Source of the DNA: Candidatus Omnitrophota bacterium
Lineage (GTDB): Bacteria > Omnitrophota > Gorgyraeia > Gorgyraeales > Gorgyraeaceae
Assembly: GCA_042570105.1 (NCBI GenBank)
Contig: JBHPHW010000001.1
Location: 19,932 to 83,931 of the forward strand
Reading direction: 5' to 3'
DNA: 64,000 bases
A program made the position numbers and the translations under genes. The number at the start of each line of letters is the position of its first letter. The stretch's first letter is position 1. A model generated the notes under the pieces. That model worked only from the letters and a program-made list of their open reading frames with translations, made no database searches and was not told the origin of the DNA. Of this stretch, positions 36,573 to 50,274 are shown one piece after another.

Positions 36573-37802
36573 ATGCCTGTTAGAAAAGAAAGGGTGTTCG
36601 AAAGTCAGTCGCTTTCGGACCACGAAAAGAAAAATTTTTCCATATTAGAGCTTATTCGTAGGAACGGTCCTATTACGAGAGCTGATATTTCAAAGACAAC
36701 AGATCTAAATATAGTAACGGTCTCAAATTATATAAATACCTACATTGACGAAGGATTGGTCATTGAGGGCGGGATGGAGGCATCTTCAGGCGGCAGGAAG
36801 CCGTCCCTTGTCAAATTAAACGAGGGGAACTCTTGTGCCATAGGACTTGATCTCGGGCATATGGGCGCAGGGGGCGCGAGTATGATAGGAGTGGTTACAG
36901 ACCTTTCAGGCAAGGTAATAACAAGGATTGAGAAAAAAAGAGAAAAAGACAGCATGGATAGGATCATTGATAAATCCCTTGACCTGATAGACGAATTAAT
37001 AAATAAAAAAGGTGTTAATAAAGACAAGGTCAAAGGGGTCGGTATAGGTCTGGGTGGGATCATAGATGAGAACCTCGGCACAGTAAGGGACTCTTCAAAA
37101 AGCGGCATACGCACAAGCTACGTATCCATAAAAGGCCTTATTGAAGAGAGGTTTAGTTTGCCTTCTTTCTTAGGCAATGATGCTACGTTTGCTGCATTTG
37201 GCGAGAAGATGCATGCCCTTCCTATGGATGTGGAGGATGTTATCTATATGTATTCTGACGTAGGAAGCGGTATTATAATAAAAGGCGGCATCTATTGTGG
37301 CGCCAGCGGCTCAGCAGGAGAGATCCGTATTAATTATCCAAGAAATGGAGATTATATGAGATCTTCAAAGGACCTTTCATTTTTACTGCCTATGGGCCTG
37401 GACCTTGGGCTTATAGCTAATGCAAAGAAATTGATAGAAGATGAAGGGATCTCTTCGACTATAGCTAAAAATGGCACAGAGAATATAACAATGAATGATA
37501 TAATGGAGGCAGCGAAATCTAGCGATACCCTTGCAATAGAGTTACTGGAGGATGCAGCTGTTAATTTAGGGGTGAGGATCGCATATTTAGTAAATCTGTT
37601 TAATCCGGAGATAGTTATAATAGGTGGTGGCATTGAAAAGGCAGGGAGTTTATTTCTAGAGCCATTGAGAAGGACAGTGAGAAAGTGGGCCTTTGAGGAA
37701 CCCGCTAATATTGTAAAGATAATACCTGCGTATCTTGGTAATGATGCTGTGGCATTAGGCGCAGCCAGTGTTGTAATAAAGAATGTTTTTATAAAGGCAT
37801 AA
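36573..37802 (+). CDS. ROK-family transcriptional regulator (N-terminal wHTH plus sugar-kinase-like domain).
   Basis: HTH ILELIRRNGPITRADISKTTDLNIVTVSNYINTYIDEGLV. ROK motifs GLDLGHMGAGGASMIGVV, GIGLGGIID. RBS aaaaaaaaggagggcaaccATG. Confidence 0.8.
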   Translation: MPVRKERVFESQSLSDHEKKNFSILELIRRNGPITRADISKTTDLNIVTVSNYINTYIDEGLVIEGGMEASSGGRKPSLVKLNEGNSCAIGLDLGHMGAGGASMIGVVTDLSGKVITRIEKKREKDSMDRIIDKSLDLIDELINKKGVNKDKVKGVGIGLGGIIDENLGTVRDSSKSGIRTSYVSIKGLIEERFSLPSFLGNDATFAAFGEKMHALPMDVEDVIYMYSDVGSGIIIKGGIYCGASGSAGEIRINYPRNGDYMRSSKDLSFLLPMGLDLGLIANAKKLIEDEGISSTIAKNGTENITMNDIMEAAKSSDTLAIELLEDAAVNLGVRIAYLVNLFNPEIVIIGGGIEKAGSLFLEPLRRTVRKWAFEEPANIVKIIPAYLGNDAVALGAASVVIKNVFIKA

Positions 37803-37808
37803 CCGTAT

Positions 37809-37868
37809 CAAAACTGTATCAAAATCTTTGTAACTGTATATTGACAAAAGAGTAATCGTATGATATAC
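37809..37868 (+). promoter_or_regulatory. Sigma70-type promoter (-35 TTGACA, 17-bp spacer, extended -10 TGaTATACT) preceded by tandem direct repeats CTGTATCAAAA x2 and a third CTGTATATTGACA overlapping the -35. Candidate operator for the efflux operon.
   Basis: Read directly: accgtatcaaaactgtatcaaaatctttgtaactgtatattgacaaaagagtaatcgtatgatatacttc. The gene start is about 22 nt downstream, with RBS aaggagaag. Confidence 0.45.
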
Positions 37869-37890
37869 TTCTCGCTTACAAGGAGAAGCC

Positions 37891-39714
37891 GTGCAGATAA
37901 AGCGTATCATATTGTTATATCTTGTTACAATTATTACAGTTATAGTAATATATCCCTCCGTATCACTTTCTTATCCAACCTCAGATGAATCTGTTACTCA
38001 ATATATACTAGACTTATCAAGAGATATTACTAAATCTATCCAGAAATCAGATAAGTCTATAATATATAGTTCAAGAGGAGAGCTTGTTTTAAAGCTTCTC
38101 CTTTCTCCATGGGGCGAATTAAAGGATGTTTACATCTCTGAATCTTCAGGCAATGAAGAGCTTGATGGCCTCTTTCTAAAGACAGTTTGGATGTATGACA
38201 GGTACCAACCTTTTCCTGAAGATCTTGGTGAGAATGAGCTCTGGATAGATGTGCCTATAATATTAGAGATCGATAGTCTCAGGGCCACGCAGGATAAGGT
38301 ATGGAGCTACTCTGAAGATGTCAAGACGCAATTCATTGGGCCTGAGGGTTTAGGTATAGATGAAGCAGTTGACATCGCATTGGAGAATCGGGAGGCCTTA
38401 AAGATAGCTCATGAAGAGATGGAGCTCTCTAATCTTAAAATCAGAGAGGCCAGGCGAGCGCTTTATCCTACTGCAAGTCTTAATTTTTTAGAGACAGTTG
38501 GAAGGGTTAGTAGCGCGGTGCAGGATTTTACTGACAAAGAGTATAAAGTAAAATTTGAATACCCTCTGTATTATGGGTGGAGGCTTAAATATGCGGTTGA
38601 CCAGGCAGTCAGTAATATGAAGGCTTCTAAACATAACTATGATAAGGTCATGCAGGATTTAAGGATCGGAGTAGAGACAGCATTCTACTCATATATAGCG
38701 ACTAAGTCTAATGTAAGGTTACAAAGGGCCCTTTTAGATGAGGCAGAGGGAATTTTTGATGTCGCAGAAAAAAGATTCAGGCTTGGATTGACCACAAAGG
38801 CTGAATTTTTACAGGTAGAGTCTCAACTAAACCAGATTATTTATCAAGTAACTTCGAGTGAGAATGATATGGAAATAGCAGCCCTTACTTTGGCGCAGGC
38901 AATGGATGCTAAAGATCCAAATAACTTGGAAGATCTGATAGATATAGACAAGGATTTTATGGATCTAGAGCCTATAGATATAAGTGTGACATTGGAAGAG
39001 TGTATGGAGTTGGCATACAAGAATAGGCCTGATAAGAAGGAAAAAGAGCATATGGTGGAATTTAATGACTACGGACGAAAGATCGCGAAGAGCAAGGACC
39101 AGTTAGCGCTTGACTTCACCGGCACTTATGGAAAATCCGGGGGCGCATTTGAGTCTGAAACATTAGAGCTGGATGAGGATTGGTACCTGGGCCTAAAAGT
39201 TTCAAAACCTTTAGGCGGCAATACACTTTCTACTACCTATACAAAGGAGGAGACAAGCCCAAAGCACGGCCAGTCAACAAATACAGAGACAGTCAGTAAG
39301 TCGGTAGAATTGGGGCTGCTTGATAATCTTCAGAGTTTTTCTGAGAAGAAATCCAGCGGCATTGCATTAAAGAAGGCCAGAGAGGAGTTGTGGCAGGTTA
39401 AAGAATCCATTTTTAAAGAAGTAAAAGAGACCTTCCTGAATTATACAAAAGGATTGGTCCAGATAAGGTCTAATATAAATAAGATCAGATATAGAGAGGA
39501 AGAGCTAAAGATCACAAAGGCGCGGAGTGAGTTAAATGAGATACCATCCTCAGGGCTTTTAAAGGCGCATATAGATTTGACCGATGAAAGGTCATTTTAC
39601 ATCGAGGCGGTTGGCAGCCTATATCAGTCTCTTGTAAAGTTAAATAAGGCCACAGGTTATGCCCTGTTTTTAGATAACGAAAGTTTTATGTTGGCGAACG
39701 TAGGAAAACAATGA
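37891..39714 (+). CDS. Outer-membrane efflux protein (TolC/OMF family) with an N-terminal extension.
   Basis: Signal peptide. Two OEP-like repeats with coiled-coil-prone segments (…LYPTASLNFLETVGRVSS…, …LALDFTGTYGKSGG…). Located upstream of MFP plus two RND genes. Confidence 0.6.
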   Translation: MQIKRIILLYLVTIITVIVIYPSVSLSYPTSDESVTQYILDLSRDITKSIQKSDKSIIYSSRGELVLKLLLSPWGELKDVYISESSGNEELDGLFLKTVWMYDRYQPFPEDLGENELWIDVPIILEIDSLRATQDKVWSYSEDVKTQFIGPEGLGIDEAVDIALENREALKIAHEEMELSNLKIREARRALYPTASLNFLETVGRVSSAVQDFTDKEYKVKFEYPLYYGWRLKYAVDQAVSNMKASKHNYDKVMQDLRIGVETAFYSYIATKSNVRLQRALLDEAEGIFDVAEKRFRLGLTTKAEFLQVESQLNQIIYQVTSSENDMEIAALTLAQAMDAKDPNNLEDLIDIDKDFMDLEPIDISVTLEECMELAYKNRPDKKEKEHMVEFNDYGRKIAKSKDQLALDFTGTYGKSGGAFESETLELDEDWYLGLKVSKPLGGNTLSTTYTKEETSPKHGQSTNTETVSKSVELGLLDNLQSFSEKKSSGIALKKAREELWQVKESIFKEVKETFLNYTKGLVQIRSNINKIRYREEELKITKARSELNEIPSSGLLKAHIDLTDERSFYIEAVGSLYQSLVKLNKATGYALFLDNESFMLANVGKQ

Positions 39715-40901
39715 AGAAATCAAAGACATTTCTAATAGGTTTTATACTTTTATGGGTGTTGGGATTTTTAGTTATATGGGGCATTACAGCATCTAACAGA
39801 TTTTCCATAAAGAAGGCTATTTTGGGCGTAAAGACAGAAGATAAAGAAGTGGACGCTGAGCGAGGGCTAGATTCTGATAGAGCTCCAAGAAGCGATGCAG
39901 TGCCGGTCAGATGTTTCAGAGTAGGATTGACAGACTTCAAGGATGATCTGCCTGTAATGGGCACAGTAAAAGCGGCATTGGAGATAGGACTTAAGTTTGA
40001 GATCAATGGCGTAATAGAATCCATTGGTTTCAGAGAGGGTGATGTTATTTATAAGGGGGATTTAATAGCTATTTTGAACAAAAAGGATGTGCAGTTAAAA
40101 GTAGATTATTCCAAGAGTAAATTAGAGACCAGTAAAACGCAGTCTCTTGCAGCTAAAAAGAAACACCAGATCATTGAAGATCTTTACGAGATAGGCGGTA
40201 TTATAAAGGCAAAATTAGAAGAGGCAGAGTTGGAGGCAAAGGGCGCTGAGCTTCAGGTTGCATCAGCCGAAGTAGAACTTCGATCAGCAGAGGCAGAGTT
40301 TTTAAAGACAGATCTTTATGCGCCACGTGATGGAGTCTTGGGATCAAGAGATGCCGAGGCGGGAGAATTTGTTACGCCACAAGATAAGATCGCCACCCTA
40401 TATGATACAGTAGAGGTGTTTGTGGAACTTGGCATAGTGGAAAAGGATATAGATAAGATCGCGCTTGGTCAGGACGTAACAGTTACAGTAGATGCATATC
40501 CAGGGGCGGCCTTTACAGGCACAATAGACAATGTTTTTCCTATTATCGAAGGAAAATCCAGGACACTTACTGTCAGGGTAGGGATACAAAACCCAGACGC
40601 ATTGCTCTTGCCGGGTATGTTTGCCAGGGCCATGATTACTGTTGCTGAATTTTATAACGCAATAGTCGTCCCTAGTATGAGCCTAAACATGGTAGACGGA
40701 GATTATATAATTTTTAGCGTTGACGAAGGTAATACTGTTTCCTCGAGGCCTGTAGAGGTGGCCTATGTGACTACTGACTACACTGTGATAGCTTCCGGCC
40801 TGTATGAAGGTGAGGTGATAGTAACTGATACGCCGCAGGAACTTAAAAATGGGATGCCTGCAGAGATCATAGAATTGCAGGAGAGTATCATAGAGGAATA
40901 G
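39711..40901 (+). CDS. RND efflux periplasmic adaptor (membrane fusion protein, HlyD/AcrA family).
   Basis: N-terminal TM anchor. Biotinyl/lipoyl-like halves (GDLIAILNKKD ... YAPRDGVLGS). Long coiled-coil hairpin. Beta-barrel domain (TLTVRVGIQNPD). Confidence 0.75.
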   Translation: MKKSKTFLIGFILLWVLGFLVIWGITASNRFSIKKAILGVKTEDKEVDAERGLDSDRAPRSDAVPVRCFRVGLTDFKDDLPVMGTVKAALEIGLKFEINGVIESIGFREGDVIYKGDLIAILNKKDVQLKVDYSKSKLETSKTQSLAAKKKHQIIEDLYEIGGIIKAKLEEAELEAKGAELQVASAEVELRSAEAEFLKTDLYAPRDGVLGSRDAEAGEFVTPQDKIATLYDTVEVFVELGIVEKDIDKIALGQDVTVTVDAYPGAAFTGTIDNVFPIIEGKSRTLTVRVGIQNPDALLLPGMFARAMITVAEFYNAIVVPSMSLNMVDGDYIIFSVDEGNTVSSRPVEVAYVTTDYTVIASGLYEGEVIVTDTPQELKNGMPAEIIELQESIIEE

Positions 40902-40904
40902 ATA

Positions 40905-40984
40905 GCAGGCGTCCTATTTTGGTACACCCTACTTTTTGCTTTCGTAAAATCTGATTGTAGGGTGTACCAAAATAGGACGCCTGC
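40905..40984. repeat. 28-bp perfect inverted repeat (gcaggcgtcctattttggtacaccctac / gtagggtgtaccaaaataggacgcctgc) separated by a 24-nt loop, between the MFP stop and the RND start.
   Basis: Left arm 40905-40932 and right arm 40957-40984 are exact reverse complements (checked base by base). Spacer tttttgctttcgtaaaatctgatt. Confidence 0.9.
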
Positions 40985-41013: not shown

Positions 41014-44000
41014 ATGAGACTCTCAGAATTTTCAGTAGATCGGCCTGTTACAATCTCAATGTTTTTTCTTGGGGTGCTGATGCTTGGCCTGATATCCTTG
41101 ACCAGGCTTCCCCGAGAGCTTTTTCCTTCCATTACCTATCCCCAACTTACAGTAATTACCGCATATGAGAATGCTGCACCAGAAGAAGTAGAGACCCTTA
41201 TTACAAAAATAATAGAAGAGACAGTCGGCACCGTAAGCAACTTGAAGCGCATAAGCTCTATATCAAAAGAAGGGGTCTCGATCGTCACTGCTGAATTTGG
41301 CTGGGGCGTTGATATGGATTTTGCATCTTTGGGCGTGCGTGAAAAAATAGATCTTATAAAGGAAAGACTTCCTCTTGGCTCAACCGATCCAATAGTAATG
41401 AAATTCAATCCTTTTGAACTACCCATCATGACACTCAGCGTTACAGGAGATAAGACGCCCTCAGAACTTCTCAGGCTTTCGAGAAAGTTCATAAAAGACG
41501 AACTCGAAAAGGTTGAAGGGGTAGCGTATAGCAATATAAGCGGCGGTTTAGAAAGAGAGATACTTGTGTCTATAGATGAAGGTAGGCTCTCGGCATCCCG
41601 CGTATCCATAACTAAAATAGTTGAGGCATTGAAATCATCCAATTTAAATTATCCTGCAGGCACAATAGAAGAACATTTTTATGAATATCTCATTAGAACG
41701 ATGGGAGAATTTAAGATAGTGCCGGAGATAGAGAAGACTATTGTGGGGAAGGATGAATCAGAGAAAGACCCCCGCGTAAATAAGGCCTCCTCTTACGAAC
41801 AGGAAGGAAGAGCCCGTCTTATATATTTAAAGGATATCGCAGAGATAAAGGATACATTTCAGGAACGGAGTAGCATATCACGTTATAACGGAAAGGAGAA
41901 TATATCAATCGCGGTGCAGAAACAGGCAGGGATGAATACTCTGCAGGTTGCCCAGAATGTAAGGAAGAGGCTTACAGAGATAAGAGGAGATCTACCCCGC
42001 GGCATGGATGTAAAAGTAGTATATGACCAGTCGATATTTATAAAGAGATCGATACGCGGCGTGATGAAGGCAGCTATTCAGGGCGGGATCCTTGCATTTT
42101 TAGTGCTTTTTGTTTTTCTAAGAAATATAAAGGCCTCCTTGATAGTAGCGTTTTCTATGCCGATATCTATTATGGTTGCCTTTAGTCTTATGTATTTTAA
42201 CGGGATTACCTTAAACATGCTTTCTCTGGGAGGGCTTGCGCTTGGCATAGGGATGCTCGTGGATAATGCAATAGTTGTAATCGAGAATATATACAGTCAT
42301 TTTCAGAGAAAAAAGGATATAAAAGAATCCTCAAAATCCGGGGCAAGCGAGATGCAGGGCGCCATATTCTCTTCGACCCTCACTACTGTAGCAGTATTTT
42401 TGCCGATGATATTTGTGGTGGGCGTGGCAGGCCAGTTATTTAAGGAGCTGGCTTTCACTGTGTCATTTTCACTCCTGGCTTCCTTAATAGTGGCGCTCTC
42501 TTTAATACCCCGTCTGACTGCAGTAGGTGGCCGGGTGAAAGCTTCGGATAGAGGCCCTCTCTCGAGTGCTACGGCCTCAAGCGCTGTTTCTCTATCGAGC
42601 GCCGAGGACACCAAAAATAAATATTTTACGTTTGGATTGGACCGTCTTTATTCAAAGGCGATACCCAAGATATTGAAGCATAGATGGCCTTTTTTAGGGG
42701 GCATACTTCTGATATTTACTTTGAGCATAGGCCTATTTACATTGATAGACAAAGAGTTTATGCCTAAGGTAGACCAGCGTGAATTTATCATAAAGGTAAA
42801 TATGCCAGGCGGCACGAAACTAAAGGTCACAGATAATGTCATAGAGAAAATAGAAAGAGAACTTTTTGATATGGAAGAGCCCGGGGGTGTGGCTGTAAGC
42901 ATAGGTTCCAGCAAGAAACGTGATTTTACCCAGGGCCTTGAGACGATGGGTTCTCATCAGGCCCAGATCATAGTGACCTTGAGGAAAGGAAAAAAATGGA
43001 AGGCGACTTCTAAGATAGTAGATAGATTAAAAAATAGACTGGATAGGTTGGATTTAGAAGGCGCAGAGATAGAGTATATTTTGCAGGAAAGTGTTTTTAA
43101 AACAGCGCTTCAGGGGAGCGCTCCTATTGTCATTGAAATAAAAGGAAAAGACCTCAAGAAGATCGAAGAAGTCTCCGAATATGTTAAAGATGGCCTCTTG
43201 GATATAAAAGGTATCTACGGAATACGCACAAGCCTTACTAAGCCTTCCCCCGAAACAAAGGTAAATATTCTAAAAGATAGAGCTAGTCTTTACAATCTTT
43301 CAACAGCTGTGATCGCGCAGGCAGCGCATACTGCAATAAAAGGTGTAGTCGCCACTAAATTTAAAGAAGAAGGGAGAGAGGTAGATATAAAAGTGAGACT
43401 AAGAAAAGAAGGCCGGAAAAGGCTTTCGCAGCTTAGGAATATCCTTATCCATTCTCCGCTTGATATAGAAGTACCGCTCTCAGAGGTCGCTTATATCGCT
43501 CAAGGAGTCGGGCCGAGTGAGATAAAAAGACTTGATCAGCAAAGGGTAGTCCTTGTAACGGCAAATATCGCGGATAGGGCATTGGATAAAGTGATCTTGG
43601 ACATAAATCTATTATTGGAACGGATCGAAGAGGCGCATATTAGAGATCTGGATATGTTAAAGGATAGAGAAAAGGATATCGATATGTCTCTATCAGGAGA
43701 AAGCCGAGAGATGAGAGAATCTTTCAGGTCTCTTAGATTTGCGTTGCTTTTATCGATACTTTTGGTATACATGATAATGGCTGCACAGTTTGAATCTTTA
43801 TGGCAGCCGTTTATTATTATGTTTACAGTACCTTTGTCCCTTATGGGTGTATTTGTCGCATTATTTTTAACGCGCACTCCTATAAGCGTTGTTGTGATGC
43901 TCGGGTTTATAATACTGGGGGGCATTGTTGTCAATAATGGGATTATTTTAATAGACGGTATAAATAGATTGCGCGCTAAAGGAGTAGAATTAATCGAGGC

Positions 44001-44637
44001 TGTTATTGAATCCAGTAAAACCAGACTCAGGCCAATACTCATGACGACCATGACTACAGTGTTAGGTCTTTTGCCTCTGGCATTGGGGATAGCCGAGGGT
44101 TCAGAGCTTCAGAGCCCGATGGCTATAACAGTAATGGGCGGACTTATTGTCTCCACTATCCTGACCCTTTTCGTGATACCGTCTCTTTATACTATTATTG
44201 CGAGCATCATTGCTCTGAGACCAGTCTTAAAGCCAGTGTATGCGGAAGCGCTCAAGCCAACTTTAGTGGGGCTAGCTATTCAAGAGGAAAGAGTGATACC
44301 ATTGCCTCCGCCGCCGCAAGTTGCGCTAGAACTACCAAAGCCAGAGTCAGAACCGCCAAAACCAGAGATAAAACCTGTGGTTCCAAAGCCGAGCATTGAG
44401 CCAAAAGAATTACCAGGCCCTGAGCCAGAAAAACCGCCTTTACAAGAGTTGAATAATCGACAGAAACAGCTAGTGGAGCATTTGAAAACAGTAAAAAGGA
44501 TCACGCGCAAAGAATACGCCAAAGTTTTTAAGATATCCGTACCAACAGCAGCCAGGGATTTAAAGGAGTTATTGGATAAAGGAATGCTTATTGCCCATGG
44601 CCCCCTGGGGCCGGGCAGGTGGTATGAGCTGAAGTGA
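41014..44637 (+). CDS. RND efflux transporter (HAE1/AcrB family) carrying a C-terminal Pro-rich linker and a cytoplasmic winged-helix DNA-binding domain.
   Basis: 12-TM AcrB architecture with two large periplasmic loops. After the last TM: PLPPPPQVALELPKPESEPPKPEIKPVVPKPSIEPKELPGPEPEKPP, then QKQLVEHLKTVKRITRKEYAKVFKISVPTAARDLKELLDKGMLIAHGPLGPGRWYEL (Fic/AlbA_2-associated wHTH-type motif ...TAxRDLKELvxKGil...G.GrgtxY.L). Confidence 0.8.
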   Translation: MRLSEFSVDRPVTISMFFLGVLMLGLISLTRLPRELFPSITYPQLTVITAYENAAPEEVETLITKIIEETVGTVSNLKRISSISKEGVSIVTAEFGWGVDMDFASLGVREKIDLIKERLPLGSTDPIVMKFNPFELPIMTLSVTGDKTPSELLRLSRKFIKDELEKVEGVAYSNISGGLEREILVSIDEGRLSASRVSITKIVEALKSSNLNYPAGTIEEHFYEYLIRTMGEFKIVPEIEKTIVGKDESEKDPRVNKASSYEQEGRARLIYLKDIAEIKDTFQERSSISRYNGKENISIAVQKQAGMNTLQVAQNVRKRLTEIRGDLPRGMDVKVVYDQSIFIKRSIRGVMKAAIQGGILAFLVLFVFLRNIKASLIVAFSMPISIMVAFSLMYFNGITLNMLSLGGLALGIGMLVDNAIVVIENIYSHFQRKKDIKESSKSGASEMQGAIFSSTLTTVAVFLPMIFVVGVAGQLFKELAFTVSFSLLASLIVALSLIPRLTAVGGRVKASDRGPLSSATASSAVSLSSAEDTKNKYFTFGLDRLYSKAIPKILKHRWPFLGGILLIFTLSIGLFTLIDKEFMPKVDQREFIIKVNMPGGTKLKVTDNVIEKIERELFDMEEPGGVAVSIGSSKKRDFTQGLETMGSHQAQIIVTLRKGKKWKATSKIVDRLKNRLDRLDLEGAEIEYILQESVFKTALQGSAPIVIEIKGKDLKKIEEVSEYVKDGLLDIKGIYGIRTSLTKPSPETKVNILKDRASLYNLSTAVIAQAAHTAIKGVVATKFKEEGREVDIKVRLRKEGRKRLSQLRNILIHSPLDIEVPLSEVAYIAQGVGPSEIKRLDQQRVVLVTANIADRALDKVILDINLLLERIEEAHIRDLDMLKDREKDIDMSLSGESREMRESFRSLRFALLLSILLVYMIMAAQFESLWQPFIIMFTVPLSLMGVFVALFLTRTPISVVVMLGFIILGGIVVNNGIILIDGINRLRAKGVELIEAVIESSKTRLRPILMTTMTTVLGLLPLALGIAEGSELQSPMAITVMGGLIVSTILTLFVIPSLYTIIASIIALRPVLKPVYAEALKPTLVGLAIQEERVIPLPPPPQVALELPKPESEPPKPEIKPVVPKPSIEPKELPGPEPEKPPLQELNNRQKQLVEHLKTVKRITRKEYAKVFKISVPTAARDLKELLDKGMLIAHGPLGPGRWYELK

Positions 44638-44650
44638 GGGCAATTTTGTT

Positions 44651-47600
44651 ATGAATCTATCCGAATTTTCAGTTAAAAGACCTATTACGATATTTATGAT
44701 ATTCCTCGGAATATTGCTGCTGGGATTCGTGTCTTTGTTGCGTCTCCCTGTAGAATTAAAGCCTAACATAGCATATGGAGATATAAGCATAATCGTGGCT
44801 GTAAGAGGAGGCATGCCTCCTCAGGAAGTAGAAGCGCTTGTTACAAAACCTATAGAGGAGGCAGTAAGCACTGTAAGTTATTTAAATAATATATATTCGA
44901 CATCGAAGGCAGGAGAGTCCAGGATATGGCTTGAATATGAACCAGGCACAAATATGGATTTTGCCGCGCTCGAGGTAAGAGAGAAATTTTCAAAAATAAG
45001 GGATAAGCTTCCGCGGGAGATAGAAAAGCCTATTATCGCACAGTATAAAGAGTCTGATATGCCGATAGTTATTTTAGCAGTCACAGGGGAAGGTTATACA
45101 CCTGAAGAGTTAAGGAAGGTCGTTGATATAGAGATAAAGGAAAGGATACTGCGCGTGGAAGGCGTTGCAAACGTCGATATCTATGGCGGCAGGGAACGTA
45201 AGATCTTAGTCGAGGTTGATAAAAATAAGCTGTATCAGTACCGGATACCCATGGAGCATGTTGTCAATCTACTCGGCGCAAATAATTTAAATCTGCTCGC
45301 AGGGGACATTGAGCGCAGAAAAAATAAATATCTTATAAGGATAATGGGAGAATTTGAATCCCTCGATGATATTAAAGATATAGGGATCACCCTCACCCCT
45401 CAGGGTTCTATTATTAAGCTTAGAGAAATCGCAAAGGTAAAGGATTCTTTTCTAGAACCCACAAATTATGCCCGGACAGATATAGAGCCTGTAGTCTCTA
45501 TTTATATACAGAAGGAGTCAACGGCAAATACACTGCAAGTAGTCTCGAGCTTACAGGAAGAGATAAGGCGCTTAAAAAGGACATTAGACAAAGACATATT
45601 AATAAAGGCTACCCTGAATCAATCAGATGCGATAAAAGAGGCTATAAACGCTGTTAAGACCTCTCTTCTTTACGGAGCGATACTAGCAGTGCTAGTCCTA
45701 TTATTATTTTTAAAAGACCTTAGGGTTACTTCGATAATAGGTGTCACGATCCCAATATCGGTCATGGCTACATTTATACTGATGTATTTTCATAAGATAT
45801 CCTTGAATGTCATGACCCTCAGCGGTCTGGCGCTTGGTATAGGGATGTTGGTAGATAATTCTATTGTAGTTTTAGATAATATAGATAAAAAGAAGAGGGC
45901 GATGAGGGCTTCTGAAAGAGATTCAAAAACAAGATATGCGGAGACAGTTGTAAATGGGGCCAACGAGATGGGCCTGGCAATATTCGCCTCTACCATAACT
46001 ACGGTAATAGTTTTTTTGCCTTTTATTTTTGTAAATAAAGCGACCCGCATGCTCTGGAGTGGGCTGGCATTGACTGTGACGTATTCTCTTTTAGGTTCTC
46101 TCTTTGTCGCATTGACACTTGTGCCCATGTTGTCAAGCCGGATAAAACTAGCGCCTTACAGCGTAAAGCCAAAAAAATCAATGTTTAAAAGGGATTTTTT
46201 TTCAAATATAAAAAGCTATTATAGGAAGATACTTGTTATTGGCCTGAAGTTAAGGTATGTATTTGTGCTTGGCTCTTTCGGGATTTTAGCGCTGGTATTA
46301 CTATTAGGATCCAGGATAGAAAGAGAGTTTATGGCAGAGGCAGAGGAAGGGCGCTTTACTATATTTGTAGAATTAGAACCAGGCGCAAAGCTTGACATAA
46401 CAGACGAGATGGCGAAGGAGATAGAGATATTAATTTCTGGTATCCAGGAGGTAAAGACCTTTACTTCACGGGTCGAGCCATGGTCAAGCAAGATATATGT
46501 GAAACTTTTGCCCCTTGCCGGTAGAAAACGCACGACTAAAGCTATTATCGAAGACATACGAACCCGGGCGCAGGCAGTTGAGCGGAAATACAAAGGAGGT
46601 TTTATCTATTTTTCAGAGATAGAAGAGAAGGGCTTAAAGGAGATCATACTGGACCTCTATGGTTATCAATATGAGATATTAAAGGAACTAGCAGTTTCAG
46701 TGGCTACCAGGCTCGGGGCTATAGAAGGTTTTGAGGATATCAGGATGTCCAGGATCAGCGGGAGACCTGAATGGGGCATTACGGTTGATAAAGAAAGGGC
46801 AGGGATGTATGGTTTGAGCGTAAAGGATATAGCTGAAACACTGCATTCTGAGATAAGGGGCTTGCGCGCTACATTATACCATACAGAGTCGAGAGAAATA
46901 GAGACCGTATCCCGTTTGAGAAAAGAAGATAGAAAGCGGCTGGATGACTTAAGAAAACTTGTCCTTTTTTCAAGCGATGGGAATCCAATACTCTTGGAAC
47001 AGGTGGCTGATTTTACGCCTCAGATAGGCGCAAGCGAGATCATTAGAAAGAATAAAATGAGGGTTGTCCATATAACGGCCCTTCTTACAAAGGACTCACT
47101 TATAAATGCCGCAAAAAAGATCAAGGAAAATATTTCTAGTATGGAGTTTCCGAAGGATTATTATTATAGGATAGGCGGTAATTATGAAAGAAATATTGAG
47201 AACGAAAAAGAACTCTGGGCGCCTCCTACGGGAGTGTTGTGGATAACAATATTTTTAGTTTATCTAGTGCTTGCCTCCCTATTTGAATCGTATGCCCAGC
47301 CATTTATTATAATGATATCGGTCCCTCTGGCAGCCATAGGAGTAATAGTCGGATTAAAGATCGCAAATAAACCGATAAGCCGCGGAGTGATCATAGGGGG
47401 CATCATGCTTGCAGGGATCGTCGTTAATAATGCGATTGTTTTAGTGGATAGGATAAATTTTTTAAGGAGGAAGAAAACGGGTGGCGGAGGACGGAGGACG
47501 GATTTATTACGCTCGCTCGTAGAAGCGGGTGAGGACCGCTTGAGACCAATAGCCATGACAACTTCAACGACTATATTGGGCCTTATCCCAATGGCATTTG

Positions 47601-47833
47601 ATAAGAGTGAGTCGGCAAATTTATGGTCCCCTCTTGCGATCACTGTGATAGGGGGGATAGCGTCTTCAACTATACTGACACTGTTTTTACTCCCCAGTAT
47701 TTATTTGGTCTTTGAAGATCTGAAGGATATAGGAGGCCGTTTACTAAGGATCCCTAATATTCTGAGACACCCTATGATTATACAGATCTCTAAGAGATTA
47801 AACATCCCGCTTCGCCAAGGGAGAAATCTCTAA
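44651..47833 (+). CDS. Second RND efflux transporter (HAE1/AcrB family), tandem paralogue (MdtB/MdtC-like arrangement).
   Basis: MNLSEFSVKRPITIFMIFLGILLLG... and the conserved TM4 region GLALGIGMLVDNSIVVLDNI, parallel to GLALGIGMLVDNAIVVIENI in the first pump. Confidence 0.85.
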   Translation: MNLSEFSVKRPITIFMIFLGILLLGFVSLLRLPVELKPNIAYGDISIIVAVRGGMPPQEVEALVTKPIEEAVSTVSYLNNIYSTSKAGESRIWLEYEPGTNMDFAALEVREKFSKIRDKLPREIEKPIIAQYKESDMPIVILAVTGEGYTPEELRKVVDIEIKERILRVEGVANVDIYGGRERKILVEVDKNKLYQYRIPMEHVVNLLGANNLNLLAGDIERRKNKYLIRIMGEFESLDDIKDIGITLTPQGSIIKLREIAKVKDSFLEPTNYARTDIEPVVSIYIQKESTANTLQVVSSLQEEIRRLKRTLDKDILIKATLNQSDAIKEAINAVKTSLLYGAILAVLVLLLFLKDLRVTSIIGVTIPISVMATFILMYFHKISLNVMTLSGLALGIGMLVDNSIVVLDNIDKKKRAMRASERDSKTRYAETVVNGANEMGLAIFASTITTVIVFLPFIFVNKATRMLWSGLALTVTYSLLGSLFVALTLVPMLSSRIKLAPYSVKPKKSMFKRDFFSNIKSYYRKILVIGLKLRYVFVLGSFGILALVLLLGSRIEREFMAEAEEGRFTIFVELEPGAKLDITDEMAKEIEILISGIQEVKTFTSRVEPWSSKIYVKLLPLAGRKRTTKAIIEDIRTRAQAVERKYKGGFIYFSEIEEKGLKEIILDLYGYQYEILKELAVSVATRLGAIEGFEDIRMSRISGRPEWGITVDKERAGMYGLSVKDIAETLHSEIRGLRATLYHTESREIETVSRLRKEDRKRLDDLRKLVLFSSDGNPILLEQVADFTPQIGASEIIRKNKMRVVHITALLTKDSLINAAKKIKENISSMEFPKDYYYRIGGNYERNIENEKELWAPPTGVLWITIFLVYLVLASLFESYAQPFIIMISVPLAAIGVIVGLKIANKPISRGVIIGGIMLAGIVVNNAIVLVDRINFLRRKKTGGGGRRTDLLRSLVEAGEDRLRPIAMTTSTTILGLIPMAFDKSESANLWSPLAITVIGGIASSTILTLFLLPSIYLVFEDLKDIGGRLLRIPNILRHPMIIQISKRLNIPLRQGRNL

Positions 47834-47916: not shown

Positions 47917-49191
47917 ATGGATAAAACATTACGGTCAATACTGTGGATATTGATAGCATTAGTGCTAGTAAGCAGCTTTAGCACCGGCTGGTTTTTTGTA
48001 GCGAAAGAGAGACTTCATAATGAATATGTGAGTTTAGAGAGCCTTTTTAAAACCAGCACGGAGAAGTTAAACAGAGAACTTGCATCTTCGGATAAGAAAA
48101 ATATAGAACTGAGGACAAAGCTGGAGGTAGCTGAAAAAGAAATGGATTCCTTGCAATCTCAAAACAAGCGCTTAGAAGCTCAGCACAGGGAACTTTTAGA
48201 GGAAAATGATGATTTGGATAAAGAGCTTGCCACGGTGAAGAGAGGTAAATTCTCTCTCGAGGAGAGAATAAAAGATATGTCCTCAGAGAAGTTTTTGGCA
48301 GGGCTTTTGAAAGAAAAGGTCTCGCTGGAGGTGGCATTAAAAAGCTTGAAGGAAACTCTGGTGCCCAAGGATTTAGAGATAGAGGGACTGAAGAAAGATG
48401 TCGCGGATCTAAATACGGCCATTTCTAGGGTTGAAGAGGAAAAAGATTTTTTGGAGCAAAAGGTCAAGGATTCCAGCAAGGTCGCAGATATATTAAGCAG
48501 AGATCTATTGAAGGAAAAGGATAAAAGCAAAGGACATAAGCGAGAAGTCGCAAATATAAACAGAGAGAGTCGTTTTTTAAAAACCAGGATATCATCGCTC
48601 GAGCAAATCTCCGATAAGTTCAACAAGGCGCTTTTAGAGAACGAAGATATGAAATTTACGCTATCCAGTCTAAAAAGAGACCTTGAGTATAAAAGAAATG
48701 AGGTCAATGAGGTCCTCAAAGAGAGAGAAAATGAGCGGTTAAGGGTGTCTAGCCTGGAAAAAGAGCTGGAAAATAAAAGAACGGAATTCGATAGATTGAG
48801 AACTTCCATGGATCGTAAAACACAAGAACTGGAAGGATTCAGGGCTGAGGCATATCACGCTCCAGAGGAGGTAGAGTTACCCCCTATTATTTTAGAGAAA
48901 AGGGATCATGGAGCGAGTCGAGTTACTGCTTCTCCCCTTGAACAAATAACCGAGAGTCGAGCCCCAAAAGGCAGGGTCCTCACCGTAAATAGAGAATATA
49001 GTTTTGTGGTCATAGATGTGGGGATGCAGGATGGAATTAATGGAGGGGCCAACTTTAATGTCTATAGAGGCGGGACGCTTATTGGTTCCATAGAGGTGAT
49101 TCAAACTCGAGAAAGGATCTCCGCTTGTGATATAAAAGATGTAAATGAAGGATTTAAAATAGAGATAGACGATGTAATTGCAAGACGATGA
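47917..49191 (+). CDS. Membrane-anchored long coiled-coil protein with a small C-terminal beta-rich domain; possible pilus/secretion assembly factor.
   Basis: N-terminal TM ILWILIALVLVSSFSTGWFFV. About 300 aa of heptad-rich sequence (E/K/L-rich). C-terminal RVLTVNREYSFVVIDVGMQDGINGGANFNVYRGGTLIGSIEVIQ. Directly upstream of gspF/pilC-like gene. Confidence 0.4.
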   Translation: MDKTLRSILWILIALVLVSSFSTGWFFVAKERLHNEYVSLESLFKTSTEKLNRELASSDKKNIELRTKLEVAEKEMDSLQSQNKRLEAQHRELLEENDDLDKELATVKRGKFSLEERIKDMSSEKFLAGLLKEKVSLEVALKSLKETLVPKDLEIEGLKKDVADLNTAISRVEEEKDFLEQKVKDSSKVADILSRDLLKEKDKSKGHKREVANINRESRFLKTRISSLEQISDKFNKALLENEDMKFTLSSLKRDLEYKRNEVNEVLKERENERLRVSSLEKELENKRTEFDRLRTSMDRKTQELEGFRAEAYHAPEEVELPPIILEKRDHGASRVTASPLEQITESRAPKGRVLTVNREYSFVVIDVGMQDGINGGANFNVYRGGTLIGSIEVIQTRERISACDIKDVNEGFKIEIDDVIARR

Positions 49192-49194
49192 ACA

Positions 49195-50274
49195 ATGGAG
49201 CTTTTGAAAAGAAATCTACCATTCTTAAATCTCAAAAGAAGGGTCAGCAACAAATCCCTTGTAGTATTCACCAGGCAACTCTCCACGCTTATTGCCGCAG
49301 GCCTGCCGCTTGTAAAGGCGCTTAAAACTTTATACGACCAGTTAGAACAGGGCGCGCTAAAGGATATTATAAAAAACGTAGCCAATGAAGTAGAAAGCGG
49401 CACAAAATTTTCAGAAGCCCTCTCGCGTTTCCCAAAGGTATTTCCAGAATTCTATGTCAATATGATGAAGGCAGGGGAGCTTGGAGGTATGCTGGAAGGC
49501 ATCCTCAAGCGGCTTTCTGAATTTTTGGACAAGAGCCAAAAACTCAGGGACAAGATAAAATCAGCGCTTATGTATCCTGCCTTTGTGCTTATTGTAGCAG
49601 TACTTATACTTATCATGCTCATGGTATTTGTCATACCTACGTTTACAAACATGTTTTCAGAATTAGGAGGGGCGCTGCCTCTGCCCACAAAGATACTAAT
49701 TGCTACAAGCGAGATCATTAGGAAAATGTGGTATCTTATTCCTCTTATTCCTGTTGCAATAGTTGCAGCATATAAGTGGCTGGTAAGAAACCCTGACAGA
49801 AGATGTGTGGTCGACAGGCTTAAATTACATATTCCCGTAATAGGCAACCTCACGCAGCAGGTCTCGGTTTCTAGATTTTCCAGGACGCTGGGTACATTGC
49901 TTTCGAGCGGCGTGCCAATATTAAGCGCGCTTCAGACTGTAAAGGATACGGTGGGCAATGAGTTTATTGCGCGTGCGGTTCTACAAGTGCGCGACAGTAT
50001 CAAAGAGGGGGAAAGCGTATCTGGGCCGATGGAGGCCAGTAAGGCCTTTCCGCCGCTTGTTGTAAAGATGATAAATATAGGCGAAGAGACAGGAGAGCTT
50101 AATAAGATGCTTATCCAGATAGCTGATAATTTCGAAGAGGAAGTGGATGTCGCAATAAGCGGGCTCACGTCTCTTTTGGAGCCGATGCTTATAGTATTTA
50201 TGGGGCTTGTCGTAGGCTTTATTGTTATTTCGATGTTCATGCCATTATTTTCACTTGCCAAACTTATAGGGTGA
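49195..50274 (+). CDS. Type II secretion / type IV pilus platform protein (GspF/PilC family).
   Basis: Two repeated cytoplasmic domains with 3 TM segments. Motifs LSTLIAAGLPLVKALKTL and LGTLLSSGVPILSALQTV (duplicated T2SSF signature). Confidence 0.75.
   Translation: MELLKRNLPFLNLKRRVSNKSLVVFTRQLSTLIAAGLPLVKALKTLYDQLEQGALKDIIKNVANEVESGTKFSEALSRFPKVFPEFYVNMMKAGELGGMLEGILKRLSEFLDKSQKLRDKIKSALMYPAFVLIVAVLILIMLMVFVIPTFTNMFSELGGALPLPTKILIATSEIIRKMWYLIPLIPVAIVAAYKWLVRNPDRRCVVDRLKLHIPVIGNLTQQVSVSRFSRTLGTLLSSGVPILSALQTVKDTVGNEFIARAVLQVRDSIKEGESVSGPMEASKAFPPLVVKMINIGEETGELNKMLIQIADNFEEEVDVAISGLTSLLEPMLIVFMGLVVGFIVISMFMPLFSLAKLIG

Follow-up and report, generated by a model that had tools for sequence, protein, structure and literature searches.

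An RND efflux pump subunit carrying a C-terminal winged helix-turn-helix domain is conserved across Omnitrophota

Within the 64,000-nt stretch of Candidatus Omnitrophota DNA that we analysed (the window), the first of two tandem RND efflux pump genes runs on past its last transmembrane helix, in a single reading frame, into a proline-rich linker and a C-terminal winged helix-turn-helix (wHTH) domain. We confirmed that this fusion is real and under selection, and that it is conserved across Omnitrophota. As a tentative reading, to which we give somewhat less than an even chance, we propose that the tail would act as a membrane-tethered DNA-binding regulator, through which the copy number of the pump would feed back on transcription.

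Structure and recurrence of the fusion gene

The fusion gene occupies 41014..44637 on the + strand and was read as one unbroken frame of 1207 codons plus stop, with these parts:

41014..44271, + strand: core of the MdtB-like RND permease encoded by the first pump gene, RND1; residues 1-1086 (Pfam, NCBIfam)
44113..44229, + strand: last hydrophobic segment (TM12 region), residues 1034-1072 (Kyte-Doolittle 19-residue scan)
44230..44436, + strand: juxtamembrane stretch and acidic Pro/Glu/Lys-rich linker, residues 1073-1141 (composition, pI)
44437..44634, + strand: C-terminal wHTH, residues 1142-1207 (PF08220, AlphaFold2, Foldseek)
44539-44577, + strand: predicted recognition helix H3, tail residues 35-47, VPTAARDLKELLD (AlphaFold2 model)
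44587-44631, + strand: predicted beta-hairpin wing, tail residues 51-65, GPLGPGRWYEL (AlphaFold2 model)
44635..44637, + strand: stop codon TGA of the fusion gene (sequence)

The core matched ACR_tran (PF00873) over residues 4-1062 of 1207 (E 1e-240, 801.9 bits against a cut-off of 28), covering profile positions 2-1020 of 1021, and is thus an end-to-end HAE1-type RND permease. Against NCBIfam it scored 623 bits with RND_permease_2, and its best equivalog-type model was MdtB/MuxB, at 380 bits against a cut-off of 1584. No Pfam match to an AlbA_2, HATPase_c_4 or Fic domain was found in the 1207-aa protein. In AcrB, both termini are cytoplasmic. Since the RND1 tail is placed after TM12, and the hydrophobicity scan found no hydrophobic segment beyond residue ~1072, it is predicted by AcrB topology to be cytoplasmic, in keeping with what the initial annotation had proposed for an AcrB-type core with a tail after its final TM helix. 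Its description of a pump ORF running on into a Pro-rich spacer and a wHTH was likewise borne out, with both quoted peptide strings found exactly; it was right to place a tail at 44270, although that base sits 2 nt ahead of the in-frame codon (44272).

To our eyes the strongest evidence for the fusion is its recurrence. In 80 genome loci of Omnitrophota we read 83 frames that encode the tail; 65 of these carried the fusion in a single frame, and most of the remainder were cut by contig ends. When loci were instead found via the adaptor protein, a search that is blind to the tail, all 32 of the 32 complete RND1 orthologues were fused, and the fusion was present in 119 of the 120 best protein-database matches. 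Of the two tandem RND genes, it was always the first, MdtB-like one that bore the tail, which was confined to that one pump subunit, and RND1-HTH preceded RND2 at every locus. The HTH is also more conserved than the pump: between the window and the type B clade, the cores were ~52% identical and the tails ~68%. The same fusion, suggested as something to look for in related genomes, was therefore found widely across the phylum, and the view that an RND-HTH fusion had not previously been described agrees with our literature searches, which turned up no such report and nothing relevant on Omnitrophota efflux regulation.

That a small HTH gene had been wrongly joined to the pump gene by sequencing or assembly error has a negligible probability: our first database search did return mostly short HTH-only proteins (38-116 aa), some titled "DeoR family transcriptional regulator, partial", but these were contig-edge fragments or gene calls from an internal Met within the linker, and 85 full-length fused sequences stem from separate assemblies that differ in assembler and sample. 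There is no stop within the fusion frame, and a frameshift or missed stop is excluded by the dozens of independent assemblies in which the fusion is again intact, evidence far stronger than read pile-ups of one assembly would be.

Split versions occur in L001 and L064. The only in-frame stop that we saw, in L001, is a single TCA-to-TAA change when compared with six close relatives. L064 encodes the HTH on a separate 410-aa protein, directly after an RND gene, that has an N-terminal hydrophobic segment and a ~300-aa coiled coil; that this split HTH protein has a hydrophobic segment of its own indicates that membrane tethering of the HTH matters.

Between core and head, the linker is rich in charge and proline and poor in conservation. 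Residues 1087-1141 of the window protein contain 18 Pro in 55 residues (pI 4.8), and the segment 1073-1141 includes a short hydrophobic patch, ERVIPLPPPP. Across 65 orthologues, linker length ranged from 19 to 513 aa (median 69), with 19% P, 18% E and 11% K, and the sequence was hypervariable; 21 of 35 type A linkers had a patch matching [VIL][IVLM]x[LMI]P.

The C-terminal domain and its relatives

The tail has a predicted winged helix-turn-helix fold, a three-helix bundle with a beta-hairpin wing. A Pfam search, advised in the initial annotation, did find an HTH family, with residues 1149-1193 matching HTH_DeoR (PF08220) above its gathering cut-off of 21 bits (22.0 bits with the whole protein, 25.7 with the terminal 121 aa alone, and 27.9 with the terminal 66 aa), and 46 of 48 orthologous tails matched it too (best E 1e-10). 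AlphaFold2 modelled the tail with a pLDDT of 91.6, placing H1 at 7-19, H2 at 24-30, H3 at 35-47, and strands at 51-54 and 62-65. Foldseek searches with this model gave TM scores of 0.76-0.83 to MarR, CadC/ArsR and AspA, and of 0.80 to CbFic2.

The domain (residues 1142-1207) is strongly basic, with a pI of 10.1 and 14 K+R against 7 D+E (net charge +7). Its invariant residues (R8, Q9, R24, Y27, S34, T37, A38, R40, D41, L42, G55, P56, G60 and R61) fall in H2, H3 and the wing, and the recognition helix, S(V/I)PTAARDLK, is identical in all major clades.

A PDB sequence search with the single tail gave no match below E 0.019, while a profile of the tail matched residues 302-358 of CbFic2 (PDB 8cil; E 2.7e-4). 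Other kin were the C-terminal wHTH domains of AlbA_2/HATPase_c_4 proteins (COG2865, Schlafen-like) P0075, P0102 and P0023, P0075 being 52% identical. In P0075, P0102 and CbFic2, the domain lies at or near the C-terminus, as it does in RND1, and two sigma-54 activators (P0096 and P0106) have the same type of wHTH at the C-terminus in place of a Fis-type DNA-binding domain. The kinship first noted with the wHTH of Fic and AlbA_2/Schlafen proteins thus received support from CbFic2, P0075, P0102 and P0023.

The pump tails themselves form a tight clade of their own, with 60 matches at E<=1e-10 among 1.84 billion representatives. Those of the close matches that also matched the pump core were RND C-terminal fragments, and the others examined were fragments of linker and HTH; neither P0023 nor P0075 is a pump tail. 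We found no match to the DeoR C-terminal effector-binding domain in the fusion protein, in which the HTH is C-terminal with 0-18 residues beyond it, unlike whole DeoR-family regulators with their N-terminal HTH, and the name "DeoR family transcriptional regulator" given to fragments and to P0390 is a domain-level label only. Elsewhere in the window, the same HTH gave only very weak matches (i-E 0.1 or worse) with a profile contaminated with pump sequence, and the suggested echo of a giant protein's HTH theme was not upheld.

Operon, promoter motif and adjacent ROK gene

RND1 lies in an operon that runs TolC-like factor, adaptor, RND1, RND2, downstream of a ROK-family gene:

36573..37802, + strand: ROK-family protein with N-terminal wHTH (ROK E 1e-35, HTH_24 E 1.8e-6)
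37801..37822, + strand: two tandem motif copies at 11-bp spacing, AACCGTATCAA and AACTGTATCAA (motif scan)
37841..37869, + strand: sigma-70-type promoter, TTGACA, 17 nt, TATACT, with TG before the -10 (11/12 consensus matches)
37891..39714, + strand: first operon gene, outer-membrane factor (TolC family) with N-terminal TonB_C-like region (OEP E 1e-45)
37900..37910, + strand: third motif copy, AAGCGTATCAT, codons 4-7 of the outer-membrane factor gene (recurs likewise in many type A loci)
37956..37966, + strand: fourth, weaker motif copy, CTCCGTATCAC, with exact core CCGTATCA (motif scan)
39711..40901, + strand: membrane-fusion (periplasmic adaptor) protein (HlyD_D23 E 3.5e-31)
40905..40984, + strand: perfect hairpin with 28-bp stem at the adaptor-RND1 junction (dG -61.1 kcal/mol, z -10)
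44651..47833, + strand: RND2, MdtC-like, second RND permease, without tail (ACR_tran E 3e-224)

The tripartite partners (OEP and adaptor genes) are directly upstream of RND1 and are kept in type A and related loci, while type B operons run RND1-RND2-adaptor. A protein search with the window OEP returned only type A orthologues (at least 57% identity); its TonB_C match, at 23.2 bits, fell just under the 24.6 cut-off, and orthologues carry PF03544+PF02321. RND1 and RND2 are 38% identical, and RND2 had MdtC as its best equivalog-type model, at 390 bits. We do not regard RND1 and RND2 as orthologues of MdtB and MdtC, because their scores are far under the equivalog cut-offs (380 vs 1584 and 390 vs 1774). 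For the type B leader, Rfam returned no family at gathering score and only spurious hairpin matches at E<=5, and the RNAalifold consensus was weak, since the inner hairpin does not align.

Two targets had been put forward for the tail. The palindrome at 40905-40984 did not hold up and we ruled it out as an operator: the hairpin is present as a single copy in the window and in this lineage only, and in other genomes the adaptor-RND1 junction is an ATGA overlap or has unrelated hairpins or insertions. Some such junctions appear, by sequence resemblance, to hold small genes for four-helix bundles of the rRNA-intervening-sequence type.

The other proposal, the repeats at 37809-37868, fared better, as these are part of a real and widely conserved motif, AACCGTATCAT, for which the binder could be either the tail or the ROK protein. 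The operon promoter is ~90-99% conserved in 26 distinct related loci. The tandem motif copies lie upstream of its -35, the first overlapping the ROK stop codon, and a homologous TACCGTATCAT matches the fourth copy in many type A loci. In 1.48 Mb of related loci we counted 27 exact copies of AACCGTATCAT, where ~0.6 would be expected, a ~45-fold enrichment, and five divergent clades have the 11-bp motif at the promoter of the operon. Most copies follow one another head-to-tail with a spacing of 11 bp, in either orientation, and in L161 and L162 one copy sits between the -35 and -10, a repressor-type position. A motif copy was also seen in L085, upstream of a gene.

We consider AACCGTATCAT a candidate operator of the operon, and its distribution fits the ROK regulator no less well than the tail. 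For a repressor gene, to lie immediately ahead of the operon that it controls is the usual arrangement. Of the five clades with the motif, four have a ROK orthologue beside or close to the operon, and clades without the motif have none in the neighbourhood; the HTH helix of the ROK orthologues, LNIVTVSNY, is invariant. At type B operons, the motif showed no enrichment over shuffles and was not found within 5-10 kb; nor was it found in L160 and L163. It counts against the tail as the binder that its recognition helix is constant, yet type B, L160 and L163 are without the motif. Variants of the HTH helix occur in L160 and L163, which do not have the motif, and in L164, which does. In L164 it is the pump promoter that has the motif, and not the promoters examined beside the distant ROK gene, a point in favour of the tail. 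ROK adjacency and the motif disagree in one clade (L158), as the tail hypothesis likewise has type B to account for.

Possible roles of the tail and comparison with known systems

A DNA-binding role is favoured by the PF08220 matches, the wHTH model, the high pI, the invariant H2, H3 and wing residues, and the contexts of the relatives, and from these we infer the following scheme. The RND1 C-terminus leads through a disordered, acidic, Pro-rich tether to a basic DeoR-type winged-helix head. With the tail on the RND1 C-terminus, each pump complex would therefore have one to three DNA-binding heads leashed under the inner membrane, and two if RND1 and RND2 form an MdtB2C-like trimer. The head would bind DNA and work as a membrane-tethered transcription regulator, its dose equalling the count of membrane-embedded pump subunits, which could give product-counting feedback on the pump operon or a small regulon. 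As the tether is disordered and its length highly variable, pump conformation is a less likely signal than copy number or location. A disordered linker of 19-513 aa cannot relay such conformation, which makes it unlikely that substrate is sensed through the pump.

The best candidate target is AACCGTATCAT, the tandem 11-bp repeats flanking or overlapping the promoter of the TolC-led operon. Its head-to-tail arrangement in either orientation would suit heads that act independently as monomers more than a dimer with two-fold symmetry. In its boldest form, which we regard as possible though rather unlikely, the pump itself would be a transcription factor: RND1 heads would bind the tandem AACCGTATCAT at their own promoter and count assembled subunits, and transcription of the outer-membrane channel, adaptor and pumps would be set by that count.

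The tail might instead tether the pump to the nucleoid through nonspecific DNA binding, positioning pumps or holding the chromosome at the membrane in very small cells without control of particular genes, and AACCGTATCAT would then be the ROK operator. A highly basic head on a long flexible leash would suit such a role, as would an HTH that is invariant in clades with or without the motif near the operon, and four of the five clades with the motif also have ROK, whose own HTH is invariant. Full-length CbFic2, which has the nearest solved HTH relative, binds random-sequence dsDNA, and its HTH drives nuclear localisation; in vitro DNA binding was not reduced in CbFic2 minus the HTH (PMC10628234), so that binding is not credited to the HTH alone, a point against the tethered-regulator reading. 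The phylum-wide invariance of S34, T37, A38, R40, D41 and GPxGxGR exceeds what backbone binding needs, the tail is limited to this one pump subunit, and our literature searches found no such tether on a transporter; we know of no precedent for one. We therefore judge this reading unlikely.

Distinctly improbable, in our view, is that the winged helix is a protein- or RNA-binding module that docks a partner (RNA polymerase, ribosome, ROK protein or a protease) onto the pump. Winged-helix folds also make protein and RNA contacts, and the top Foldseek match of the tail was ribosomal protein eS25; very high conservation would suit a conserved protein partner, no motif is common to all operon types, and the semi-conserved hydrophobic patches of the linker could be docking motifs. 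The sequence relatives, however, all come from settings interpreted as DNA-binding (DeoR HTH, sigma-54 activator C-termini, COG2865-type regulators and CbFic2), and the net charge of +7 also speaks against docking.

Very improbable is a latent transcription factor freed by regulated proteolysis of the linker to become a soluble regulator, in the manner of membrane-bound precursors cleaved under stress. The recurrent hydrophobic patch (VIxLPxPP / IIVMPxKALE) in the exposed linker could be a protease site, and split versions exist in L001 and L064, but the L064 protein retains a hydrophobic anchor rather than turning soluble, the L001 stop is one change in one assembly, the linker sequence is hypervariable, and no protease gene was conserved in the operon at the loci compared.

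Few bacterial transporters have been studied as thoroughly as RND pumps, and control of their expression is ascribed to separate soluble regulators of the TetR, MarR and AraC types and to two-component systems. A DNA-binding domain built into a pump subunit and kept through the history of a phylum would point to a different and very direct coupling of membrane and genome. If the boldest form of our reading, with the pump as regulator of its own operon, is correct, it would constitute an Omnitrophota-wide, covalent transporter-regulator feedback loop, new for any RND pump. Public records name the fusion protein only "efflux RND transporter permease subunit", and hundreds of such entries would conceal a second function. 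The fusion may lend itself to simple tests of how a factor tethered to the membrane reaches DNA inside ultra-small cells, with the 11-bp promoter motif as a concrete reagent for testing regulation.

The fusion resembles ToxR and CadC in its working without being a member of that group. In ToxR, CadC and TcpP, a tethered DNA-binding head functions at the inner membrane, and winged-helix domain and membrane anchor share one chain, as in RND1; in these proteins, however, the wHTH is N-terminal and of the OmpR/PhoB type, with a single TM helix and a sensor in the periplasm, whereas RND1 has a C-terminal DeoR-type wHTH on a 19-513-aa leash, attached to a 12-TM, ~1070-aa transporter of a tripartite efflux system. 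In the trigger transporters, PtsG sequesters Mlc and MalK sequesters MalT, non-covalently and depending on transport state. There too a transporter governs a transcription factor and links expression to transport capacity, and Mlc is a ROK-family repressor, as a ROK gene adjoins the RND operon here, but in RND1 the DNA-binding domain is covalent to the transporter and no state dependence is evident. With MdtBC and MuxBC, the operon has in common two tandem paralogous RND genes and an adaptor; the likeness of RND1 to MdtB (and MuxB) and of RND2 to MdtC consists only in reciprocal model preference and tandem arrangement, both scoring below the equivalog cut-offs, and we know of no Mdt or Mux protein with a C-terminal HTH. 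CbFic2 and the AlbA_2/HATPase_c_4 regulators have only the HTH in common with the fusion. MmpL3, also a transporter of the RND superfamily, has a long, disordered C-terminal extension in the cytoplasm and is similar in this to what is predicted for RND1, but MmpL tails belong to a different RND family, have no DNA-binding domain, and are tied to localisation and phosphorylation.

The fused pump gene and its relatives

The initial annotation had the first pump gene running on into a proline-rich spacer and a winged helix of the kind known from Fic and AlbA_2/Schlafen-type proteins, and both peptides it gave for these parts were found verbatim in one uninterrupted frame. The two tandem pump genes are as follows.

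41014-44637, + strand: RND1-HTH, the fusion, a single open frame of 1207 codons plus a TGA stop
44651-47833, + strand: RND2, the second tandem RND gene, 38% identical to RND1, no tail

Pfam placed an AcrB-type RND domain end to end over residues 4-1062 of the fusion protein (E 1e-240) and a DeoR-like helix-turn-helix (HTH) at residues 1149-1193, which scored above the gathering cut-off of 21 in the whole protein (22.0), in its last 121 residues (25.7) and in its last 66 (27.9). Residues 1087-1141 form a Pro/Glu/Lys-rich spacer (18 prolines in 55 residues, pI 4.8), and residues 1142-1207, the tail domain, are basic (pI 10.1; 14 Lys + Arg against 7 Asp + Glu). In a hydropathy scan the final hydrophobic stretch was at 1034-1072, with none beyond residue 1072. 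Both termini of AcrB are cytoplasmic, and since the tail adds no membrane segment, we infer that it is cytoplasmic as well. The NCBI record of the protein (MFC1623703.1, 'efflux RND transporter permease subunit [Candidatus Omnitrophota bacterium]') carries no annotation of the fusion.

A first search with the 66-aa tail returned short matches throughout (38-116 aa), some named 'DeoR family transcriptional regulator, partial'. We rejected a separate small HTH gene as their source, as these matches consist of a proline-rich stretch followed by the same C-terminal module and are located between two RND genes. In L001, one of the loci with a related pump operon, the pump gene and the 'small gene' share a frame, with proline-rich sequence on either side of a lone in-frame TAA (5890-5892, one metagenome contig) that parts pump from linker and HTH; this codon is TCA (Ser) in six close relatives, and for the TAA the choice is between a nonsense mutation of recent date and a base error.

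Scanning one genome per species with an alignment of the tail gave 115 places, almost entirely in Omnitrophota; some matches are labelled otherwise (e.g., 'uncultured Planctomycetia', 'Patescibacteria group'), and Candidatus Undivivens, also among them, is an Omnitrophota genus. The 80 loci retrieved yielded 83 tail-encoding frames. In 65 of these the tail closes a single frame that runs without interruption for 1143-1659 residues and whose first ~1065 residues align end to end with the window pump, and the remainder are mostly truncated at contig ends. When the neighbouring adaptor protein served as the query, a search blind to the tail, the first RND gene was complete in 32 loci and bore the tail in all 32. 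In the protein database, with a divergent member as the query, the best 120 matches were 1068-1519 aa long and the tail was terminal in 119. Because these three approaches agree, we conclude that the fusion is a conserved feature of the Omnitrophota phylum and that an assembly error is excluded as its origin. The concern raised at the outset, that a stop or frameshift might separate pump and HTH, is answered by the open frame and by this recurrence in related genomes.

In all cases the tailed gene is the first of two tandem RND genes and the second lacks a tail. The best-scoring NCBIfam models were MdtB/MuxB for the first and MdtC for the second; since all scores fell far under the equivalog cut-offs, this likeness is, on sequence scores, one of resemblance and not of orthology. 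The gene order of the window (type A) is a ROK-family protein with an N-terminal winged helix (ROK), a TolC-like factor, adaptor, RND1-HTH, RND2, a coiled-coil protein and a PilC-like protein; further clades (L158, L160-L165) have related TolC-first orders, and type B loci have RND1-HTH, RND2 and adaptor.

Several neighbouring genes were also recorded. The coiled-coil protein (424 aa) and PilC/T2SS-F protein (47917-50274 in the window) lie 3′ of RND2 in nearly all type A loci, and in other clades this place is taken by lnt (apolipoprotein N-acyltransferase) and CBM30/CBM9 genes. A giant gene lies near the pump operon in the window (71-25861, 8596 aa), and giant genes stand directly 3′ of RND2 in L161 (16918-end, 7857 aa) and L165 (17348-end, 9340 aa). 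In the window TolC-family factor (37891-39714), an N-terminal region at residues 63-123 resembles the TonB C-terminal domain (23.2 bits, slightly below cut-off); PF03544 and PF02321 occur together in nearly all of its 120 listed orthologues, and 'TonB family protein' is the name given to some of them. It is unusual for TonB_C and TolC to be fused.

The winged helix and its linker

AlphaFold2 run on the tail alignment predicted a winged helix of three helices and a beta hairpin (pLDDT 91.6), with MarR, ArsR/CadC, AspA and Coxiella Fic protein 2 (CbFic2) as structural neighbours at TM ~0.8. Among 1.84 billion representative proteins, just 267 relatives were found at E<=1e-3 and 60 at E<=1e-10, the closest being mostly pump C-terminal or linker/HTH fragments. 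The family first proposed for the domain was borne out by remoter relatives, which are AlbA_2/HATPase_c_4 (Schlafen-like, COG2865-type) proteins, and by a profile from 48 tails, whose best solved relative was CbFic2 (8cil, residues 302-358; E 2.7e-4); sigma-54 activators among the relatives carry this domain in the C-terminal DNA-binding position. The nuclear localisation of CbFic2 depends on its DeoR-type HTH, and the full-length protein binds random dsDNA, an activity undiminished in vitro when the HTH is removed (PMC10628234). DNA binding by the pump tail is something we infer.

Both sequence and length are hypervariable in the linker (lengths of 19-513 residues, median 69; Pro 19%, Glu 18%, Lys 11%), which has coiled-coil segments in some lineages; of 35 type A linkers, 21 share a short hydrophobic patch, either VIxLPxPP or IIVMPxKALE. 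Between the type B clade and the window, the tail is ~68% identical and the pump core ~52%; judged by identity, the HTH is better conserved than the pump, and it is under stronger purifying selection. The residues that are invariant are located in helix 2, in the recognition helix (S-x-P-T-A-A-R-D-L) and in the wing (G-P-x-G-x-G-R). RND1, a subunit of the pump, thus carries a basic winged-helix domain on a flexible tether, on the predicted cytoplasmic side.

A split variant occurs in L064 (3948-5243; also P0057), where the HTH is part of a separate protein of 410 aa, whose gene comes right after an RND gene and which is made up of an N-terminal hydrophobic segment, a ~300-residue coiled coil and the HTH. 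A palindromic repeat parts the two genes and recurs at 5608-5645, adjoining a small gene that in sequence resembles those of four-helix-bundle (rRNA-IVS-type) proteins. The topology of the 410-aa protein is ambiguous (TTG start at 4011, ribosome-binding site AAGGA), and the arrangement suggests that membrane attachment, rather than a covalent bond to the pump, is what is retained. Other protein relatives include P0023 (2918 aa, four copies of the tail-type HTH, AlbA_2/HATPase_c_4 domains duplicated), P0014 (116 aa, a lipoprotein-type signal peptide, LILSC, then the HTH), and P0038 and P0045, HTH fusions whose N-terminal parts by eye resemble endonuclease III and a ferredoxin and which are possibly rearrangement products.

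Candidate operator sites and their possible binders

Two elements of the window had been put forward as targets of the tail, the palindrome and the repeats at 37809-37868, in the region of the operon promoter.

37841-37869: operon promoter, TTGACA, 17 nt, TATACT, 11/12 matches
40905-40984: palindrome, perfect 28-bp stem, dG -61 kcal/mol

The palindrome was dropped as a conserved target, there being no conservation among relatives: the adaptor and RND1 genes overlap in many of them, and elsewhere they are separated by hairpins or insertions that are unrelated. Hairpins that are long and near-perfect but unrelated in sequence are frequent in these gaps (window, L008, L009, L016, L044, L105, L112, L117, L126) and look like mobile palindromic insertions; in L126 the gap contains, in addition, a small ORF similar to genes for four-helix-bundle (IVS-type) proteins.

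The repeats fared better. The operon promoter is nearly invariant across 26 related loci and is preceded by tandem AACCGTATCA(T/A) copies at 11-bp spacing; for the exact 11-mer there are 27 occurrences over 1.48 Mb of loci, where ~0.6 would be expected. Type A loci carry more copies at codons 4-7 and ~+66 of the TolC-like gene, and the sites remain with the operon promoter where an inserted sugar-transporter gene separates ROK from the operon. The identical 11-mer is found at the operon promoter in four further divergent clades: L158 (one copy upstream, two or three downstream), L161 and L162 (six copies, one between -35 and -10 and an inverted one after -10), L165 (three after -10, two at the RND2 stop) and L164 (five). 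This position inside the core promoter indicates a candidate repressor-type operator.

Copies were also seen away from the promoter: three exact AACCGTATCAT copies between lnt and the CBM9/CBM30 gene cluster in L158 (18369-18426), tandem copies at the RND2 stop codon in L063 (9857-9878) and L165 (16662-16683), and one immediately past it in L085 (8471-8481). All of these copies, at the 3′ end of the operon, hint at operon-end sites or a regulon of small size.

The candidate binders are two conserved winged-helix proteins, ROK (36573-37802, just upstream) and the pump tail. ROK has roughly a little less than an even chance of being the binder. It is in the neighbourhood in four of five motif-bearing clades, is absent from all motif-less ones (type B, L160, L163), and its HTH helix is invariant across these clades; its gene lies directly upstream of the operon, the usual arrangement for a repressor and its own target. 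To our knowledge, the ROK repressors so far characterised bind palindromes as symmetric dimers or tetramers, a preference we counted in favour of the tail; the motif sites are asymmetric and mostly head-to-tail at one helical turn, in either orientation, as fits independent monomeric heads on leashes. The tail is also the sole DNA-binding domain found in every such operon, and in L164, with its five promoter copies, the ROK gene is six genes distant in a sugar cluster and the motif is absent from the two intergenic regions read beside it. Yet the recognition helix of the tail is identical in type B, where no motif lies within 5-10 kb. One clade thus disagrees with each candidate: L158 in the case of ROK, type B in that of the tail. 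The repeats stand as a conserved promoter motif, for which the tail is a somewhat less likely binder than ROK; some other factor is unlikely.

Type B operons have a conserved ~80-90-nt element, within ~80-170 nt upstream of the RND1-HTH start codon, comprising a box (G)GGRCTGGCA(A), an A/T-rich gap, AGGGGGTAA with a variable-sequence hairpin, and CCCC then a T run.

L017: ~1480-1630
L021: ~900-1040
L052: ~430-530
L054: ~570-660
L059: ~1520-1600
L073: ~1350-1440
L022, L023, L025, L032, L062: further loci with the element

A promoter lies immediately upstream of the box in several loci. The element had no matching family in Rfam and looks like a transcription attenuator or riboswitch-like leader.

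A proposed tethered-head model and known systems

The tail would bind DNA close to the membrane. Pump conformation cannot be passed on through a disordered leash whose length varies so much, and therefore dose or location sensing is the simplest model: there would be as many heads as the membrane has RND1 subunits, and these tethered heads would act on target promoters by repression or some other tuning. Were the pair to form an MdtB2C-like trimer, each pump might, purely speculatively, have two heads, in keeping with the tandem sites. As rivals to dose or location sensing, the tail could be a non-specific nucleoid tether, dock protein or RNA, or be released by proteolysis.

As first claimed, no description of an RND-HTH fusion was found in the searchable literature, and public records name the protein just as an RND permease. 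The fusion would bear on efflux-pump regulation and on membrane-tethered transcription. The arrangement would work like membrane-bound regulators of the ToxR/CadC type and is reminiscent of regulators under transporter control, such as Mlc-PtsG, but it is a member of neither: its HTH is DeoR-type and C-terminal, and its anchor is a 12-TM RND permease.
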